Sequence record: PZ445407.1
Source of the DNA: a phage
DNA: 47,731 nt
Reading direction: 5' to 3' (one strand)
Shown: in pieces, positions 1 through 46,062 of the stretch
Layout of the letters: each line of letters starts with the position of its first letter
How positions within the stretch are numbered: the stretch's first letter is position 1
Translations under genes and position numbers: made by a program
The notes under the pieces: model-generated
Told to the model about the DNA's origin: nothing
Seen by the model: the letters and a program-made list of their open reading frames with translations, nothing else
The model's database searches: none

Positions 1-41
1 GCACGAATTGCCAAACACAAAAGCCACGGATGGCGTATAGT
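1..41 (+). promoter_or_regulatory. palindrome-type promoter (half-palindrome completed by window end) for 72..449
   Basis: gcacgaattgcca + 22 bp + TATAGT (36..41); near-identical to copy at 43335. Confidence 0.5.
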
Positions 42-71
42 CACTTCACACAAACGAGAGGAGTTAAACAA

Positions 72-449
72 ATGACAAACACTTCAAAGGCTGTATATAT
101 TGGGAACAATGATGACAAGTATTGTGGATTCACTCCGGGAAATGAATACGACGTTTGCGTTCTTGATGATGGATTTTTGGGGGTTTACGATGATGATGAT
201 ATTCACCGTTGCATTAAAAACGGAACGTTACACGAGTTCAAGCTCGATTGTGAGGATGGTCATTTTGTAACTGAGACTGAGTGCGAAGTCATGCCGCCTA
301 TCGACAATAAAAAGCCAGAGCTTAGATATTACATAAATGGTCATGAGGTTGACATGGTTGAGTTCGGAAATGTGCGCTATACTGTAGAGCAGCTTAATGA
401 GGATGGCGTAAAATGCGACACAATCAAGTTCGAAGTAAAATTCGAGTAA
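72..449 (+). CDS. hypothetical protein, moron-like; paralog of 12195..12569
   Basis: ATG at 72 in frame with ORF 30..449, RBS gagg upstream; preceded by palindrome promoter; C-terminus (KFEVKFE) matches 12195..12569 (DFEVSFE). Confidence 0.5.
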   Translation: MTNTSKAVYIGNNDDKYCGFTPGNEYDVCVLDDGFLGVYDDDDIHRCIKNGTLHEFKLDCEDGHFVTETECEVMPPIDNKKPELRYYINGHEVDMVEFGNVRYTVEQLNEDGVKCDTIKFEVKFE

Positions 450-470
450 CCACAAAAGCTGTGATAAACT

Positions 471-494
471 AGCCCCTGTTATGGGGCTTTTTAT
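471..494 (+). terminator. rho-independent terminator
   Basis: hairpin agcccc-tgttat-ggggct + T-run. Confidence 0.5.
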
Positions 495-505
495 TGGAGA
501 AAAAC

Positions 506-1768
506 ATGGTCAAGACAGACAGCTACGCCAATATCTTTCTCGGCGGCAGTGATGGTAGTGAGATTTACGGGAGTTTGCAGAATCAGGCGCCCACAATTCT
601 GGCCTCGCTTTATGCTGACAATGCTCTGGTGCGTCGAATTATCGACACAATACCGGAGACAGCATTAGCGGCAGGATTCCACATTGATGGTATTGATGAT
701 GAATCTGAATTCTGGTCTCACTGGGACGACCTGGAGCTAACAAAACACATCAATGAAGCCTGGTCATGGGCTAGATTGTTCGGTGGGTCTGCAATTGTTG
801 CTATCGTTAAGGACAATAGGGCGCTAACAAGTCCGGTCAGAGAAGGTGCCGAGCTTGAAACGGTTCGCGTTTACGACCGCACACAAGTAAAAGTACAAAC
901 CCGAGAGGAGAACCCACGCAACTCGCGCTTTGGTAAGCCGCTAACCTATCGCATCACAACAAACGAAAGCGATATGTTCTATGATGTGCATTACACCCGC
1001 ATTCACATCATTGACGGAGAGCGAGTCCCTAACGTAATGCGCCGTCAGAATGATGGATGGGGTAGAAGTGTTCTTTCTAGTGATATTCTTGACTCAATCA
1101 AGGATTACACGAACTGTGAACGACTTGCCACGCAATTACTGAAGCGTAAGCAGCAGGCGGTCTGGAAGGCGAAAGGGCTTGCTGAGTTGTGTGATGACAG
1201 CGAAGGATTTGGCGCGGCTCGATTACGACTTGCTCAGGTTGATAACAATAGTGGCGTGGGTCAGGCAATTGGCATTGACGCAGAATCTGAAGAGTACAGT
1301 GTTCTAAACTCTGATATCGGCGGGATTGATGCGTTTCTGGATAAGAAGTTTGACCGAATCGTTGCTCTGAGCGGCATTCATGAAATCATCCTGAAGAACA
1401 AGAACGTTGGCGGTGTATCTTCAAGCCAGAATACGGCGCTTGAGACATTCCACAAGCTGGTTGACCGCAAGCGTAATGCTGAGCTTCTGCCTATTCTTGA
1501 GTTCTTAATCCCGTTCATTGTTAATGTAGAAGAATGGTCAGTAGAGTTTAATCCTTTAGCGCAGGAGTCGAGCAAGGATAAAGCAGAGATTCTGGAGAAG
1601 AACGTAAACAGCATTGCGGCACTAATTGCAGCTGGCGCTATGGATACTAACGAGGCTCGTGATACACTACGAACTATCGCACCAGAGATTAAGATTGGTG
1701 ATGGAAATATCGAACCTGAAGAACCATCTAAGGAAGTAATCGCGACGACAGAGGAATCTAATGAATGA
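506..1768 (+). CDS. portal protein (putative)
   Basis: ~420 aa ORF immediately downstream of the terminase genes across the junction; ATG 506 preceded by ggag; position-based call. Confidence 0.55.
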   Translation: MVKTDSYANIFLGGSDGSEIYGSLQNQAPTILASLYADNALVRRIIDTIPETALAAGFHIDGIDDESEFWSHWDDLELTKHINEAWSWARLFGGSAIVAIVKDNRALTSPVREGAELETVRVYDRTQVKVQTREENPRNSRFGKPLTYRITTNESDMFYDVHYTRIHIIDGERVPNVMRRQNDGWGRSVLSSDILDSIKDYTNCERLATQLLKRKQQAVWKAKGLAELCDDSEGFGAARLRLAQVDNNSGVGQAIGIDAESEEYSVLNSDIGGIDAFLDKKFDRIVALSGIHEIILKNKNVGGVSSSQNTALETFHKLVDRKRNAELLPILEFLIPFIVNVEEWSVEFNPLAQESSKDKAEILEKNVNSIAALIAAGAMDTNEARDTLRTIAPEIKIGDGNIEPEEPSKEVIATTEESNE

Positions 1769-1801
1769 TGAATTTGATGGATTTTAGTGAGGAGAATTGG
1801 G

Positions 1802-2890
1802 ATGTATAAAGTCCGCTATGACAGCGCAAAGTTTAAGGCAACAATCGACGAGAATGGATTCTTAGTCGATACGCCTGTGGTAGCGCGCCTCGGCGTGCAA
1901 GTCTACTACATGGAGGATGGTCGCACGGTTCGAGAGTTTCGCCCAGCAGAGGAAGTTTTCAAGGATGAATCCCTCGCAAGCTACCAGGGTAAGCCAATGA
2001 CCCTGGATCACGTCTTCGTTAACTCTGAGAACGCTAAAGAGGTGGTAGTAGGTTCAGTTTCTGGCAAAGCTGAACCTCTTGGCAGTTCAGTGGTTGCGCC
2101 AATCGTTATTTACGACAACGCAGCCATTCAGGAAGCTATGGCAGGTAACGCCAAGGAGTTGTCAGTCGGATACTCTGCAATTCTTGACGAAACCCCAGGA
2201 TGGGGAGACCCTGCTACTGGCGAGTACATCCTTAAATCTGATGCTGATGAGAAATTCGATGCACCAGAAGGATGGCAGGAGTTCGACGCAATTCAGCGTG
2301 ACATTAAAGTGAACCATCTCGCAATGGTATATCGCGGTCGCGCAGGTATTGCCAAATTGAATATGGACGGTGAGCAGGAAAACCCGTATACTACTGACGT
2401 TGATATCAATAAAGAGGATAAACAGGAAATGATTAAGATTAAACTCGACGGCGCGCAGGAATTTGAGGTCGCACCGGAAGTCGCTTCTCACATCGAAGCG
2501 CTGAACGCAAAGGCTGATACCGCAATCGCAGAGCGCGACGCACTGAAAGCTAAAGTAGACGCAATGCCTGCCGAAATCGAGGCTGCCGTAGCTAAAGCTA
2601 AAGCAGACGCTGAAGCACTAGCTGCCCTGGTTGCTGTTGCCGCTGAAGCTGGTGTGAAAGCTGACGGTCTGGATGCTAAAGGCATTAAAGTTGCTTACGT
2701 TAAAGAAGTCTCCGGCCTTGATGTTGCTGAGAAATCCGACGCGTACATCGACGCAGCGTTCGACATTGCCAAAGATTCTGATAAAATGGCTGAAGTACGT
2801 AAAGCAACTAACGCTTCCAACAAATCTGACAGCGCCGATGAGCCTAAGAAATTAGACCCGCGTGCTCGTTTAGCTAAAATTAAGAAATAA
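1802..2890 (+). CDS. head morphogenesis / scaffold-like protein (putative)
   Basis: ATG 1802 after gaggag; Ala/Lys/Glu-rich C-terminal region typical of scaffold coiled coils; lies between portal and capsid. Confidence 0.4.
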   Translation: MYKVRYDSAKFKATIDENGFLVDTPVVARLGVQVYYMEDGRTVREFRPAEEVFKDESLASYQGKPMTLDHVFVNSENAKEVVVGSVSGKAEPLGSSVVAPIVIYDNAAIQEAMAGNAKELSVGYSAILDETPGWGDPATGEYILKSDADEKFDAPEGWQEFDAIQRDIKVNHLAMVYRGRAGIAKLNMDGEQENPYTTDVDINKEDKQEMIKIKLDGAQEFEVAPEVASHIEALNAKADTAIAERDALKAKVDAMPAEIEAAVAKAKADAEALAALVAVAAEAGVKADGLDAKGIKVAYVKEVSGLDVAEKSDAYIDAAFDIAKDSDKMAEVRKATNASNKSDSADEPKKLDPRARLAKIKK

Positions 2891-12120: not shown

Positions 12121-12121
12121 A

Positions 12122-19704: not shown

Positions 19705-19727
19705 GCCCCTTTCGGGGCTTTTCTTTT
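19704..19727. terminator. bidirectional terminator between convergent genes
   Basis: agcccc-tttc-ggggct with T-run; same hairpin as 22964. Confidence 0.55.
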
Positions 19728-20062: not shown

Positions 20063-20101
20063 TTTGTACCCCTCATTAAGTTGTTTCGTTTCGATGGAGT
20101 A

Positions 20102-20144
20102 ATAGTATCGCATCCTTGCGAGCAGTGTTTAGCAATTCGTGCTA
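20102..20144 (-). promoter_or_regulatory. palindrome-type promoter on minus strand for small peptide and Cor-like operon
   Basis: Reverse complement reads TAGCA cgaat TGCTA + 22 bp + TACTAT + leader TACTCCATCGAAACGAAAC. Confidence 0.5.
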
Positions 20145-20200
20145 TTGCATACACGTAACCGTTGTAACTCGATGTATACAATCTCATCCGCGAAAAATGA

Positions 20201-20300
20201 TATACGCCCTGTTACGCCAATTTACGCATTAGTTACATTAAAATATCTATATATATCAACCTTTTACTCTTATTATTATTATTATATATATTACTGTGTA
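20201..20300. repeat. iteron/AT-rich repeat element copy A (TTACGC-like repeats, ATATCTATATATATCAACCTTTTA core, (TTA)5 microsatellite)
   Basis: ~80-85% identical by eye to copy B; in divergent intergenic region. Confidence 0.6.
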
Positions 20301-20526
20301 TATCATGTAACTACTTCTATAGAGCGTTCCGGTTATAATTTTAATATCATGTGGATTTATACAGTATTGCGCGGTAGCTATAACAATGCACCATCAGCGA
20401 TAAACGGTATACACGATATACACACTAGTTACATTGAGCTATAGCTGGGCTGAGGTGCTAAAAGCCGTAACCAATGGCAATGCCTACACGCAATTACAAA
20501 GATTCACGCGTAAGTTTGAATCAACG

Positions 20527-20570
20527 ATTGGCAAAACCAATTGGACTGGCTACGGTGCCGAATATATAGT
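20527..20570 (+). promoter_or_regulatory. promoter with variant palindrome ATTGG-N5-CCAAT, 23 bp, -10 TATAGT
   Basis: Same geometry and leader as family but different half-site. Confidence 0.4.
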
Positions 20571-20607
20571 TAAATCATCGAAAGCAATCAACCAGAGAGA
20601 TACAGAA

Positions 20608-26428: not shown

Positions 26429-26914
26429 TCATCCATGAGATATGTCTTTAGCTTTTCGTGCTGCTTCGTTAGCAGCCTTAATTTTACGCCATGATCGACA
26501 TTCTGGTTTGGTTGCTAACTCGGATTCAGTAACCACACGCAGCATGTGACGCTTTTTGCAACGCAGCGTAAGAGGCTTTCCATTGCCGTCGAATTGCAGA
26601 TCTGGTCGGCAGAATGTAGCGCGAAAACCTTCTCCGGTTCGTTTGTAGTAGTTGTGAGATAGCTGAGCGCCACGTGCAGAGATCATGCCACGCTTAAACC
26701 ACTCTTCTACAGCCTGCGGCGTCACCTTTAACTGCTTTGCGATATTCGCCTTTGTGCCGAAGAAATCAAGGAGCATCTCAAGCCGCGCGCGTAGCCCAGC
26801 CCTTACCTCATCTTTCAAAACGTAGTAACCTGAAGGTCGTTTCCGCTGCTTTTTATCTTCAGTGCGGATGGTTCCGTTATTGCCGTTAGTGGTTCGCTTA
26901 TCAACTGCATTCAT
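26429..26914 (-). CDS. putative HTH DNA-binding regulator
   Basis: Segment IAKQLKVTPQAVEEWFKRGMIS resembles a helix-turn-helix; highly basic protein; divergent from helicase promoter. Confidence 0.45.
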   Translation of the reverse strand: MNAVDKRTTNGNNGTIRTEDKKQRKRPSGYYVLKDEVRAGLRARLEMLLDFFGTKANIAKQLKVTPQAVEEWFKRGMISARGAQLSHNYYKRTGEGFRATFCRPDLQFDGNGKPLTLRCKKRHMLRVVTESELATKPECRSWRKIKAANEAARKAKDISHG

Positions 26915-26926
26915 TTTATTACCTCA

Positions 26927-26968
26927 ATAGCATTTTTTGTTAAAAGTCATTCTGATTTGATGGTAGTA
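26927..26968 (+). promoter_or_regulatory. palindrome-type promoter for helicase (TAGCA-N5-TGTTA, ~21 bp, TAGTAT)
   Basis: Direct read; palindrome lies 13 bp from start codon of divergent HTH gene. Confidence 0.45.
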
Positions 26969-26971
26969 TTG

Positions 26972-27001
26972 TACTCAATTAAACGCTACAAGACAATTTT
27001 T
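26972..27001 (-). promoter_or_regulatory. sigma70-like promoter on minus strand (-35 TTGTCT, 17 bp, -10 TACAAT) for HTH/primase/tail fiber operon
   Basis: Read from reverse complement of divergent intergenic region; coordinates approximate. Confidence 0.35.
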
Positions 27002-27015
27002 ATAGGAATTTAGAT

Positions 27016-37286: not shown

Positions 37287-37313
37287 ATCCACCCCCTCGT
37301 TGTTGATGAGTTG

Positions 37314-37357
37314 ACTATACCCTCGCCAGACCATAACGTCATTAACAAAAAGTGCTA
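37314..37357 (-). promoter_or_regulatory. palindrome-type promoter on minus strand for the 33655..37286 accessory operon
   Basis: Reverse complement: TAGCA ctttt TGTTA + ~22 bp + TATAGT + leader ...CATCAACAACGAGGGGG. Confidence 0.5.
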
Positions 37358-37373
37358 TTCGTCAGATTTATGG

Positions 37374-37458
37374 ATTGTTGCAGATATTGCAATGATTCAC
37401 ATGATTATTGCACATATAGCAATATTGCTTCAGATGCAATGATGTTTTTGATTGTTGC
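37374..37458. promoter_or_regulatory. cluster of ATTGCA/TGCAAT repeats flanked by direct repeat GATTGTTGC (operator-like)
   Basis: At least six TTGC(A) units within 85 bp of a non-coding region. Confidence 0.3.
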
Positions 37459-37602
37459 GAAAAGTGAAATGAAGGGGTGAGTGAGCGAATGATAGATGGA
37501 TGGACTACCATACAAGTTGATTTTGATTCTTCTTGAGCAACTTTGCGCATACGCGTTATAAAGGTTATGCCATGTAGATGAAATCTCACTCCGCAGGAAT
37601 CG

Positions 37603-37700
37603 TGTACGCCTATCACGCAGGATTACGCAATGGTTACGTAATAATATCTATATATATCAACCTTTTAGTGTTATTATTATTATTATTATTATATACGTGT
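37603..37700. repeat. iteron/AT-rich repeat element copy B (same core, (TTA)7)
   Basis: Direct repeat of copy A; second short conserved block TTACATTGAGCTATA at 37848..37869 vs 20429..20449. Confidence 0.6.
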
Positions 37701-37753
37701 ATATAGTGTAGATAGTGGATATTGGATATTGCGATAGTTTTCTATGATTTTTT

Positions 37754-37786
37754 CCTACACTTGTAGGAATGTGACTACACTGTAGG
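37754..37786. promoter_or_regulatory. two tandem palindromic sites CCTACA-(N1-2)-TGTAGG-AAT (operator-like)
   Basis: cctacacttgtaggaat and ctacactgtaggaat read directly. Confidence 0.35.
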
Positions 37787-37917
37787 AATAAATAGGCATA
37801 TATGGGCCACCCCTCCATAAAAACTTATCTACAATCTGTACACGGCTTTACATTGAGCTATATCTGGGGTTGGTAGCTGAAAAGCGTAAATAAATTGAAT
37901 TCAACCACAAATAACGC

Positions 37918-37946
37918 TTGATAACATGTAACCTCGATGATATTAT
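37918..37946 (+). promoter_or_regulatory. sigma70-like promoter (-35 TTGATA, 17 bp, -10 TATTAT) for 37987..38508
   Basis: Hexamers read directly. Confidence 0.45.
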
Positions 37947-37986
37947 GCACCCATATTAACGAAGGCAACAATCAGGAGTAATATCT

Positions 37987-38508
37987 ATGTCGAATCGAAT
38001 TCAGCCAGTAAGCCTTGGTGATGTTATCCGCTACATGGCCAAGCAGGCACTTAAGACTGACAACCGAACTTTTCATGTCCCAATCCATCTTATAGCTCGC
38101 CAGGTGTACGGACTAACGTCTGATGATATGGGCCGAATCAGCACTGAAGATCTCGAGACTGGTGGCAAATACAGCTTGGCAAAGTTGAAAGCGTCATATG
38201 TCTCTAACACAGTTGCAAGGATGCCGGAGATTCAGGAGGCGAACGTTCGGGCCAAGCTATCAATCAAGGACGGAGACTTCGGGGATGATGTTGATGTTCG
38301 ATGCGCATACATCACCTTGGTAGATGGGGCAATTCAGAAAGGAAAGAGAGTGAAGGCCAACAACCAGGTTGCAGAGAAGGCGGTGAACGACTTTAAGGAT
38401 AGAATCCTCAAGCTAATGCCATCCGTGACTGAGTTTGAAGGAGGCGAGATCACTGGAGCCATTAAGGCAATTAAGATGTACCAGGAAATGATTAAGGAGA
38501 CAAAATAA
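37987..38508 (+). CDS. hypothetical protein
   Basis: Behind canonical sigma70-like promoter. Confidence 0.45.
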   Translation: MSNRIQPVSLGDVIRYMAKQALKTDNRTFHVPIHLIARQVYGLTSDDMGRISTEDLETGGKYSLAKLKASYVSNTVARMPEIQEANVRAKLSIKDGDFGDDVDVRCAYITLVDGAIQKGKRVKANNQVAEKAVNDFKDRILKLMPSVTEFEGGEITGAIKAIKMYQEMIKETK

Positions 38509-39047
38509 TGGGGATGTTTGATTTTACCGAAGAGAAGCTGACAGATGAGCAGATTATGCAGATTGCTGCGCGGGATGGACTTCCTCCGCTACGAGTTGCA
38601 ATCAATGCCAATGGATATCGCCAGTCTCAATCATTCTGGTGTAGTGTTGAGGAGTTGCTCTGCGCAAAGCTCGACAGCAAGTCGGGCGTAGTTGTGCTAA
38701 AAATTCACGACCAGAGCAGGAACGGTAAAGGGGTTGTAGGAATTAGATCAACATATGAAGCGCTGAGAAAGGTCAAGCCATTTGCCGGACTCAACGGAGT
38801 CATGCATGACCTGAAAAATAACATCCTGCCATCGCTACAGGACGTAGGAATCATCTGCCTCATTGGAGATAAAATTTACGTGCATCCATACATCATTGGC
38901 ATGCATGCGATAGAAGTTGAAGAGTGGTGCGACCCATGTCCTGCTGTTGAGCAAGATACTAGACTACCATACCACTTGCGTTATAGTGAGGAAGAGGTGG
39001 AGATGGCGATGGACTTGTATCGTAGATGGAATGCTGTTGGGAAATGA
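38508..39047 (+). CDS. internally deleted paralog of the 34083..35666 ATPase (N- and C-terminal modules only)
   Basis: Shares LPPLRVAINANGYRQSQSFW and C-terminal RNGKGVVG.R..YEA.RKVKPF...CLIGDK.Y with the 527-aa protein; lacks the P-loop core. Confidence 0.5.
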   Translation: MGMFDFTEEKLTDEQIMQIAARDGLPPLRVAINANGYRQSQSFWCSVEELLCAKLDSKSGVVVLKIHDQSRNGKGVVGIRSTYEALRKVKPFAGLNGVMHDLKNNILPSLQDVGIICLIGDKIYVHPYIIGMHAIEVEEWCDPCPAVEQDTRLPYHLRYSEEEVEMAMDLYRRWNAVGK

Positions 39048-41643: not shown

Positions 41644-41835
41644 ATGATTACAATTAACCTGTCAGAAGAAATGGCTGCTGACCTTATTGATTCACTAAGC
41701 CTGGTTAAAATTCGATACGGGACTTACAACAGAAGCGAATCAATAAAGGAAGTGGTAAAGCAAGTTAAACAGCAGGTCGAAGCGGCCAAAATCGAATTGC
41801 AGAACACCCCATACGATTTTAATAAAGGTGAGTAA
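41644..41835 (+). CDS. hypothetical protein (MITINLS paralog 1)
   Basis: N-terminus MITINLSEE. Confidence 0.4.
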   Translation: MITINLSEEMAADLIDSLSLVKIRYGTYNRSESIKEVVKQVKQQVEAAKIELQNTPYDFNKGE

Positions 41836-41836
41836 G

Positions 41837-42055
41837 ATGATTACAATTAACCTGTCAGACAAGCAAGCAGCAGAACTTAAATCCATGTTATCAATCTTTG
41901 AGAAGCCAAATGACCGAGCAATTGCAAAAGAGGTTATCTCTCAGATCAACAACCAGCAATTCGACGTCAGTGACTTCGAGTCATCACGTCAATATGAAGC
42001 GATGAGTGTCAACGCTGCATACCTGGTTAACTGGGATAAGGCGACTAAGCAATGA
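41837..42055 (+). CDS. hypothetical protein (MITINLS paralog 2)
   Basis: N-terminus MITINLSDK; tandem duplicate. Confidence 0.4.
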   Translation: MITINLSDKQAAELKSMLSIFEKPNDRAIAKEVISQINNQQFDVSDFESSRQYEAMSVNAAYLVNWDKATKQ

Positions 42056-44640: not shown

Positions 44641-44718
44641 GCTCTGCTAGCTCAATTGGATAGCAGCAACGACCTTCTAAGTCGTAGGTTACTGGTTCGA
44701 ATCCAGTGCGGAGCGCCA
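44641..44718 (+). tRNA. tRNA-Arg (anticodon UCU), CCA encoded
   Basis: Acceptor stem GCTCTGC/GCGGAGC, anticodon stem ACGAC/GTCGT with loop CTTCTAA, canonical T-arm GGTTCGAATCC, 3' GCCA. Confidence 0.8.
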
Positions 44719-45555: not shown

Positions 45556-46062
45556 ATGAGCAAAGCAGCATTAAAGATGGGTGAGGGAAATTTCAAGGCG
45601 CTTTACAACAAGAAGTATGGCGATATTGCGATGGTGGCTATTAACCGCAAGTACACGCCTGAGGAAGTTTTCGATTTCGCTGTTCGATACTTCTCCTGGG
45701 CTGAGACTGAGGCAATCAAAGCAATTGAGACGGCGGCATTCCAGGGTGTGGTTAGTGAGAGCCTTGTGCACAAGCCTCGAGTATTCACATTAACCGGGCT
45801 GGCGCTCTTTATGGGTGTTAATATCAATAGATTCGCACGCTGGCGTACTGAGGCTGGTTACTCTGATGTGATGGAATTCATTGATAACGTAATCTACGAG
45901 CAGAAATACCAGCTTGGCGTTGCTGGTATCATCAACTCCACCATCGTGGGGAAAGAATTGGGAATTGATAAGCCGCAGGAGATTACCATCAGCAACAACT
46001 CCACAGCCAACGACGTTGATAGCATGAAGGAAGCGCTGGAATCTGTTATTAGTAAGCTGTGA
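45556..46062 (+). CDS. terminase small subunit (putative)
   Basis: ~168 aa gene directly upstream of large terminase; RBS aaggagg. Confidence 0.55.
   Translation: MSKAALKMGEGNFKALYNKKYGDIAMVAINRKYTPEEVFDFAVRYFSWAETEAIKAIETAAFQGVVSESLVHKPRVFTLTGLALFMGVNINRFARWRTEAGYSDVMEFIDNVIYEQKYQLGVAGIINSTIVGKELGIDKPQEITISNNSTANDVDSMKEALESVISKL

Follow-up and report, generated by a model that had tools for sequence, protein, structure and literature searches.

The gene-free gap at positions 37287-37986 of Escherichia phage JulesPiccard (BASEL Bas03; sequence record PZ445407.1), a T1-like coliphage of the Drexlerviridae whose 47,731-nucleotide sequence forms the window analyzed here, may constitute the main cis-acting DNA hub of the phage, uniting within ~700 bp a leftward promoter, a packaging initiation (pac) site, an origin-like module, and a sigma70 promoter. 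This composite reading, drawn from the sequence and its comparison with relatives, is assigned a probability of roughly one half. The gap separates two diverging gene sets (an operon with the DUF3987 helicase gene on the left and a long run of small early genes leading to the terminase on the right); it is non-coding, strongly conserved, duplicated in part at a second divergent gap, and coincident with the published genome ends of related phages. From these observations we infer which proteins bind which elements and that replication starts here. An initial annotation of this DNA had described a 650-bp non-coding control region at 37335-37986 with stacked repeat systems; the repeats it listed all exist, at the stated coordinates or a few bases away, and the region is indeed non-coding, but its left boundary has been moved to 37287 because the left gene starts at ATG 37286, with a GAGGGGG ribosome-binding site, and not at 37334. 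Taken by themselves, the short motifs exceed chance only modestly. The region is made significant by being conserved across relatives, whereas the initial annotation had named poor conservation as what would refute its reading.

The left part of the gap, a cluster of TTGCA, TGCAAT, and GATTGTTGC motifs (Table 1), is probably the pac recognition region, as judged from its motifs, conservation, and position. Conservation was assessed in an alignment of ten phages from the Braunvirinae, Rogunavirinae, and Nouzillyvirus and in a wider set of 18 homologues (no more than 6 loci were contributed by a pattern scan of metagenomes, and L032 and L038, two of all the pattern hits, were chance matches); the nearest relatives of JulesPiccard are Msk, JeanPiccard, RobRod40, and many Rtp-like Drexlerviridae. 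Across the three groups the identity of 37346-37460 is 93-96%, compared with 53-79% in the flanks, and the 18 homologues agree, whereas the DUF7174 protein, encoded 500 bp away, is merely 32-92% identical in the same phages. As had been annotated, ATTGCA/TGCAAT units (four, all within 37386-37440) are bounded by a direct repeat, with GATTGTTGC at 37373 and 37450; an inverted copy (GCAACAATC) at 37965 was considered as a third boundary repeat and rejected, as it is not conserved in relatives. The cluster occurs at one location per genome record, and neither GATTGTTGC nor the 40-bp dyad is found elsewhere in the window.

Published genome ends fall in or beside this cluster (PMC11447400; PMC7718038). 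In a comparison with the records of the homologues T1, TLS, and SU57, position 1 of the T1 record, in which the terminal repeat is annotated as 1..2800, was found to align to window 37377 and to fall within the homologous cluster (GATT|GTTGCA); it is 538 bp away from the first rightward gene of T1, on the upstream side. The TLS record opens with AGATTT, at a distance of 588 bp upstream from gp01, and aligns to window ~37364. In SU57, a sharp step in read frequency was used to set the record ends, and the record stops ~25 nt beyond its match to window 37338-37500. At 8/8 positions, the conserved AGATTTAT agrees with the P22 pac core (as quoted in PMC11447400), and the small terminase of JulesPiccard (45556-46062, + strand), which is P22 gp3-like (PF16677 GP3_package, E 5e-13; phrog_606), is the expected reader of the pac site. 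Packaging initiation is favored over transcription control because the cluster is single-copy and because the T1, TLS, and SU57 record ends are located here.

The pac regions of T1 and TLS have the same position as this candidate, in a divergent gap of ~700 bp with the end placed 540-590 bp ahead of the first rightward gene, and they share with it GATTGTTGC, TGCAAT/TGCAAC, AGATTT, and GTGAGTGAG as motifs and a P22-gp3-like small terminase. For those phages an approximate end alone was reported, with just AGATTT named in TLS, whereas a dyad and direct-repeat architecture is proposed here; the cluster is also longer (~125 bp, compared with ~55-90 bp in T1 and TLS). To our knowledge, the recognition sequence of the T1/TLS pac has never been defined. 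Composite pac sites are familiar from other phages: SPP1 possesses pacL, pacC, and pacR, hexamer clusters flank the cut in P1, which also has an IHF site, and the P22 pac spans 22 bp. By analogy, the candidate site would resemble these systems in that repeated short boxes flank a central segment and an IHF-type site lies nearby; it differs from the P22 pac, which is situated within gene 3, in lying ~8 kb upstream of the small terminase gene.

Several points weigh against the pac assignment. The three independent ends are spread over ~160 bp. Further record starts at this site, those of ESCO41, XT34, and OzMSK, do not count as independent because they may copy the T1 or Rtp convention. The TLS pac was mapped by restriction digests, and the exact base was picked inside the mapped interval by its likeness to the P22 pac sequence (PMC11447400). 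Finally, the dyad symmetry of the cluster would suit a dimeric regulator too.

Table 1. Elements of the gap, the second copy of its module, and candidate binding proteins (positions in the window).
Feature	Position	Strand	Description
Leftward promoter, T1/TLS 21-nt direct-repeat (ATAGCAC) type	37314-37358	-	Box, -10-like element, and leader
Candidate pac site, cluster	37359-37500	+	Single-copy, dyad-rich, conserved
AGATTTAT	37364-37371		Cluster sub-element
GATTGTTGC direct copies	37373-37381, 37450-37458		Cluster sub-element
Palindrome ATTGCAAT	37386-37393		Cluster sub-element
40-bp dyad ATTATTGCA-N5-AGCAATATTGCT-N5-TGCAATGAT	37404-43		Cluster sub-element
GGTGAGTGAG..GAATGA	37477-37492		Cluster sub-element
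Box array 1	37545-37640	+	TACGCG 37550, then four phased boxes
A/T-rich tract, candidate DNA-unwinding element	37641-37695	+	IHF core, (TTA)7, TATATA; almost pure A/T
Box array 2	37694-37736	+	Inverted GTGTA 37697, 37706, 9 bp apart; then 7-nt GATATTG repeats (Tandem Repeats Finder)
TGTAGGAAT units	37752-37789	.	37752 inverted, 37762, 37781; first two form palindrome CCTACAcuTGTAGG
Box array 3 and block 2	37826-37889	+	TATCTACAATCTGTACACG, TACAC 37839, TTACATTGAGCTATATCTGGGG...CGTAA 37847-37889
Sigma70 early promoter TTGATA-17-(TG)TATTAT	37918-37946	+	10/12 consensus positions plus TG
Copy A of the module	20148-20470	+	88-100% identity in 9 relatives
DUF3987 (SF6, MCM-like) replicative helicase, C-terminal winged helix	34083-35666	-	Candidate origin-recognizing helicase
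Truncated helicase paralogue	38508-39047	+	Candidate box-binding protein or regulator

The cluster is followed on its right by a module (37545-37890) of short boxes and A/T-rich DNA that we tentatively read as a replication origin, or as an origin together with a cis partner, on the basis of its anatomy. The initial annotation had called the region "copy B", and a paralogous module, copy A, is indeed present 17.4 kb away, with the same box clusters in both orientations; the two copies have in common two conserved blocks and an exact 24-mer, ATATCTATATATATCAACCTTTTA, which was seen in 0/100 shuffles and which holds the IHF core WATCAANNNNTTR. Box density per 300 nt reaches 14 in copy B and 12 in copy A, compared with a genome mean of 1.98 (sd 1.68) and 7 in the next-best window, and an unbiased k-mer screen retrieves the same box family (e.g., 6/19 genomic copies of CGTGTA fall in 1.6% of the genome).

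The order of elements is the same in both copies. In copy B, array 1 carries TACGC at 37605, CACGC at 37614, TACGC at 37624, and TACGT at 37635, spaced by 9, 10, and 11 bp, and four phased boxes of this pattern (TACGC / nACGC / TACGC / TTACR, 9-11 bp apart) are found in 18/18 homologues examined as well as in copy A (20203, 20213, 20223, 20234). The A/T-rich tract that follows contains, at 37655-37667, a perfect match to the IHF-consensus core TATCAACCTTTTA, which is present in both copies, and a (TTA)7.3 microsatellite (37671-37692) whose length was checked in relatives, where n varies from 4 to 7. Beyond it, the TGTA-N5-TGTA pair of array 2 is kept in every homologue, while the remainder of the array 2 unit is lineage-specific; array 3, ~100 bp further on, comprises two or three direct boxes and ends in the TTACATTGAGC block, its TATCTACAATCTGTACACG being the inverted partner of 37696-37714. 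These partners (37696-37714 and 37826-37844) were examined as a covarying stem, but the complementarity score (mean 8.5 within a phage vs. 7.0 between phages) is suggestive and does not establish one. Copy A has, on its left side, inverted boxes at 20153 and 20172 and three TACGC boxes plus TTACAT at 20203-20238; in its center, the IHF core at 20254-20266, (TTA)5 at 20270-20285, and inverted boxes at 20296 and 20305; and on its right side, TACAC at 20410 and 20419 and TTACAT at 20430 (boxes 20410-20434), followed by block 2 at 20429-20470.

T1 and TLS have comparable pairs of modules, likewise with an A/T-rich element flanked by boxes of opposite orientation but with box sequences of their own. 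In the T1 genome, TGTAACA occurs 6 times, each time within one of the two equivalent gaps, and in TLS, TGTTCAC/GGAACA boxes in opposite orientations flank the A/T tract in both gaps; the two-copy layout is thus family-wide and the box sequence lineage-specific, to judge from the sequences compared. In the 2024 TLS paper, no origin-like repeats were found in TLS and the origin was left unassigned (PMC11447400).

Two proteins are candidate box binders: the DUF3987 helicase, through its winged helix, and a truncated paralogue of it that is encoded beside the gap. Members of the DUF3987 family are MCM-like replicative helicases of superfamily 6 (SF6) that carry a winged helix-turn-helix domain at the C-terminus, usually accompanied by a primase partner (PMC4889955), and helicase activity has been demonstrated for one of them (PMC11724360). 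The primase of JulesPiccard is a separate 307-aa protein homologous to the P4 alpha primase domain (E 8e-13). The paralogue, which is 100% identical to bas03_0065 and widespread in relatives (304 database matches), retains the N-terminal 51 aa and the winged-helix part of the helicase and is missing the ATPase core; its residues 3-53 are 71% identical to the helicase N-terminus and its residues 69-131 57% identical to the C-terminal winged helix. It could act as a dominant-negative or origin-marking factor. Sequence searches of the helicase and its paralogue against the PDB returned nothing significant.

Iteron origins served by an initiator helicase, such as the ori/crr pair of P4 and the SaPI ori read by Rep, likewise consist of short phased boxes, in both orientations, beside an A/T-rich tract. 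P4, with its alpha protein, starts replication at two separated clusters of one 8-mer whose boxes are 10-11 bp apart, and two clusters are found here too. In TLS, the box GTGAACA/TGTTCAC is the core of the P4 type-1 ori/crr repeat (GGTGAACAG; loci compared: L023 405-430; L045 1760-1790 and 1990-2015; L044 9310-9413), even though BLAST shows no relationship between the TLS and P4 helicases, whereas the boxes of JulesPiccard (TACGC/TACAC) are unlike the P4 repeat. P4 alpha moreover fuses primase, helicase, and origin-binding domains, whereas primase and helicase are separate proteins in JulesPiccard.

Against an origin function stands the lack of BLAST similarity between the DUF3987 helicase and the D5_N/DUF5906/Pox_D5 part of P4 alpha, its helicase/origin-binding part; the phage may accordingly work like P4 ori/crr, yet it does not belong to that family. 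The IHF match is weak when taken alone, since the consensus occurs 8 times in the window and 3.2 occurrences are expected. With 5 nt the box is short, and these very regions served to define it in the first place; none of the DnaA boxes considered (ATATACACA and TTATCTACA, 8/9 matches) is convincing and conserved in copy B, and both modules, being located upstream of promoters without an ATAGCAC box, may have a role in early-promoter control.

The gap is bordered by promoters of two types, as had been annotated: an ATAGCAC-type promoter that fires leftward and a sigma70 promoter directed rightward. The former consists of the box ATAGCACTTTTTGTTAATGA at 37358-37339, a -10-like TATAGT at 37319-37314, and a leader that leads to GAGGGGG and ATG 37286. 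The box ATAGCACTTTTTGTTAA at 37358-37342 (- strand), 72 nt upstream of that ATG, matches the TLS consensus and is invariant in 10 relatives. Some 18 intergenic ATAGCAC-type boxes were recognized in the window, each oriented with its downstream gene; they are the same element, under the same orientation rule, as the 21-nt direct repeat aaATAGCACnnnTTGnTAAAA published for TLS (Kropinski et al., 2024; PMC11447400), and this repeat covers merely the left 45 bp of the region. Examples of ATAGCAC-N4-TTGCTAA boxes are those at 12121, 13382, 29428, and 43334 (+) and at 20145, 35740, and 36520 (-); in the boxes checked by eye, a TATAAT-like -10 is seen 20-22 nt past TTGCTA, followed by the conserved leader TACCCCATC..AACGA..GAGG. 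As this distance is too great for TTGCTA to be a normal -35, the boxes suggest a promoter class that requires a phage factor. They were also considered as Sigma54 sites and rejected, the spacing being wrong (AG-N8-GC and not GG-N10-GC).

At the right end of the gap, homologues show a TTGAYN -35 and a -10 at the position of the sigma70 promoter, from which the first genes right of the putative pac site, those of the truncated helicase paralogue and of DUF7174 (ATG 37987; ribosome-binding site AGGAG at 37974-37978), are probably transcribed as immediate-early genes. Block 1 and the TTTACA of block 2 were considered as further promoter sites and rejected, for no acceptable -10 was seen by eye at 16-18 bp in either copy; a promoter scan yielded weak minus-strand matches only, located within the (TAA)n run, and counted no more promoter-like sites in total than shuffled sequence contains. 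The rightward promoter of copy A (20524-20575, +) keeps the -10 and leader of the ATAGCAC class (TATAGTTA..CATCGAAAGCAA), its box being swapped for the palindrome GATTGGCAAAACCAATTGG.

In the mechanism that we propose, the P22-gp3-like small terminase would recognize the dyad-rich cluster and make the first cut in it or just to its right (~37360-37530), after which headful packaging would proceed rightward through the early genes. The array 1 boxes would lie on one helix face and be bound by the winged-helix C-terminus of the DUF3987 helicase, with the truncated paralogue encoded next door possibly modulating this binding. IHF would bend the DNA and the (TTA)n/TATATA tract would melt; the helicase would be loaded, through its winged helix, on the boxes that converge on this tract, the P4-alpha-like primase would prime, and host polymerase III would elongate. 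Copy A may function either as an additional origin or in the role that crr has for ori in P4, that of a cis partner. The sigma70 promoter would meanwhile serve the first genes right of pac, and the ATAGCAC-type promoter would fire leftward. A broader and rather doubtful generalization is that T1-like phages replicate from a distant pair of iteron origins (at ~20.25 and 37.65 kb here) that are read directly by the DUF3987 winged helix, with the truncated early paralogue licensing or competing for them and one origin fused to pac, an arrangement that, if true, would couple replication initiation, early transcription, and packaging initiation within one 700-bp hub.

T1 is a classic Delbrück phage and a notorious laboratory contaminant. 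The location of pac and the ATAGCAC box were already known in outline; what the present comparison would add is a defined pac architecture, duplicated lineage-specific box modules, and a putative link to the helicase winged helix. Base-resolution candidates for the T1-like pac (the ~125 bp dyad/direct-repeat cluster) and origin (the duplicated box/IHF/A-T module) are thereby offered, so that two old questions on T1-like phages become testable in a publicly available BASEL phage. The origin reading would, moreover, fill a gap stated in the 2024 TLS paper.

The initial annotation had interpreted the dense repeats as a multi-input switch; while the binding-site-like repeats and the divergent promoters are real, the switch interpretation is supported only in part and fits poorly with a single-copy cluster at genome ends, a duplicated origin-like module, and distant boxes. 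The iteron/AT-rich/(TTA)n block recurs in another divergent gap and is organized like an origin, its boxes are 100-350 bp away from the promoters on the upstream side, an atypical distance for operators, the second of the annotated palindromes is not conserved as such, and the TGTAGGAAT units are absent in whole lineages. In a more specific form, the TTGCA dyads, TACGC boxes, and TGTAGGAAT units would be operators for a Cro-like regulator (26429-26914) and host proteins such as IHF, timing the divergent early promoters at both gaps. Such a transcriptional switch, which we consider unlikely, would account for the placement of both modules in divergent promoter gaps whose rightward promoters are without an ATAGCAC box; the phage also encodes this helix-turn-helix regulator, and the dyad symmetry of the cluster would suit a dimer. 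The box arrays nevertheless surround the A/T tract and not the -35 and -10 elements, the regulator's own divergent gap (26915-27015) is without such boxes, and T1 has one ATAGCA box on the other side of the cluster, so that the cluster has no fixed placement with respect to promoters. The genome ends of T1, TLS, and SU57 at this site would also be left unexplained.

It is more improbable that the cluster is an upstream activator site or operator of the leftward promoter and that the true pac recognition sequence lies at ~37500-37540 or elsewhere. The cluster does start directly upstream of the leftward ATAGCAC box, and the SU57 end lies ~65 nt to its right. The segment 37500-37545 is, however, far less conserved (0.57-0.79) than the cluster (0.93-0.96), and the T1 and TLS ends sit inside the latter. 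For pac phages such as P22, SPP1, and P1, a cut tens of bp from the recognition site is normal.

Equally little favored, and perhaps slightly less so, is the possibility that the module is an accessory packaging or recombination site, for example, an IHF-bent terminase-loading site, a concatemer-resolving site, or a hot spot for the neighboring RecE/Erf system. Copy B is next to the candidate pac cluster and copy A next to recombination genes, and IHF sites belong to both lambda cosB and P1 pac. The TTGCA cluster is nevertheless missing from copy A, where none of the genome records ends; initiator-loaded origins are characterized by phased boxes that converge on an A/T tract, and the candidate box binder is a replicative helicase domain.

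It is scarcely credible that a small protein or a structured RNA is the product of this region, given that it holds no conserved open reading frame (ORF), codon periodicity, or Pfam/PHROG family, that its Rfam match is below the gathering score, and that the flanking operons both point away from it, even if small ORFs are annotated here in some GenBank records (RobRod40, CJ19, and AHP24). The ORF at 37368-37616 (- strand), which had been judged probably non-coding, can be dismissed as a gene: its frame is frameshifted or interrupted in 5/9 relatives (Msk, IME542, p111, CJ19, and AHP24), variable sites are distributed 22/22/21 over the codon positions in the best-conserved 138 bp, where stops occur in all six frames, and it is without a Pfam or PHROG match. 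Plus-strand ORFs within the cluster were rejected on similar grounds (not conserved, no codon periodicity, and no Pfam/PHROG match). A search of the region against Rfam 15 gave nothing at the gathering score, its sole match being ES003 (21 bits vs. 37 needed; E 0.12), and a structured RNA was accordingly rejected, no folding or formal covariation analysis having been made because the operons on both sides are directed away.

Relatives' GenBank records carry several ORFs in the pac cluster or across block 2, namely RobRod40 CDS0063 and CDS0064, CJ19_063, AHP24_65, and the N-terminal extension of JeanPiccard bas02_0027. Their frames are not conserved (L001 4071-4495; L002 4301-4465; L022 1538-1657; L003 2036-2380), and they are probably over-calls. 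For annotation, this means that small ORFs called inside the cluster are probably spurious and that many records are broken inside a functional element.

Between arrays 2 and 3, the initial annotation had placed two tandem palindromes. Their units are present, TGTAGGAA(T) at 37762, at 37781, and inverted at 37752 accounting for 3/4 copies in the 47.7-kb window, and they share a TACAC core with the module boxes. In the JeanPiccard lineage, the first palindrome reads CTGACA/TGTCAG, with two compensatory pairs, and it is broken in other lineages; the second is not conserved as a palindrome. The TGTAGGAAT units are clade-specific: Rogunavirus, DTL, and IME542 lack them. Interpretations of TACTGTGTATAT and TGTGAC..TGTAG as LexA and CRP sites were rejected, as the second half-sites mismatch.

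Some minor observations concern the two gaps and the early genes. The block 2 start, TTACATTGAGC, has extra copies at 19726, 29035, and 46994 (+), for 5 in total vs. 1.2 expected; these are found straight after the tail-operon terminator, just beyond the stop codon of an SF2 helicase gene, and near the terminase region. GATC sites number 0 in 20064-20607 and in 37287-37986 and 79 genome-wide; with ~1 expected per gap, this is not significant alone, although it contrasts with GATC-rich origins such as oriC. A tRNA gene is located among the early genes at 44641-44715 (+; Rfam RF00005, 57 bits), and its JeanPiccard counterpart is annotated as tRNA-Arg (AGA). Lastly, the adjacent small genes at 41644-41686 and 41837-41879 begin with an identical 23 nt (ATGATTACAATTAACCTGTCAGA), an arrangement resembling a local tandem duplication of an early gene.

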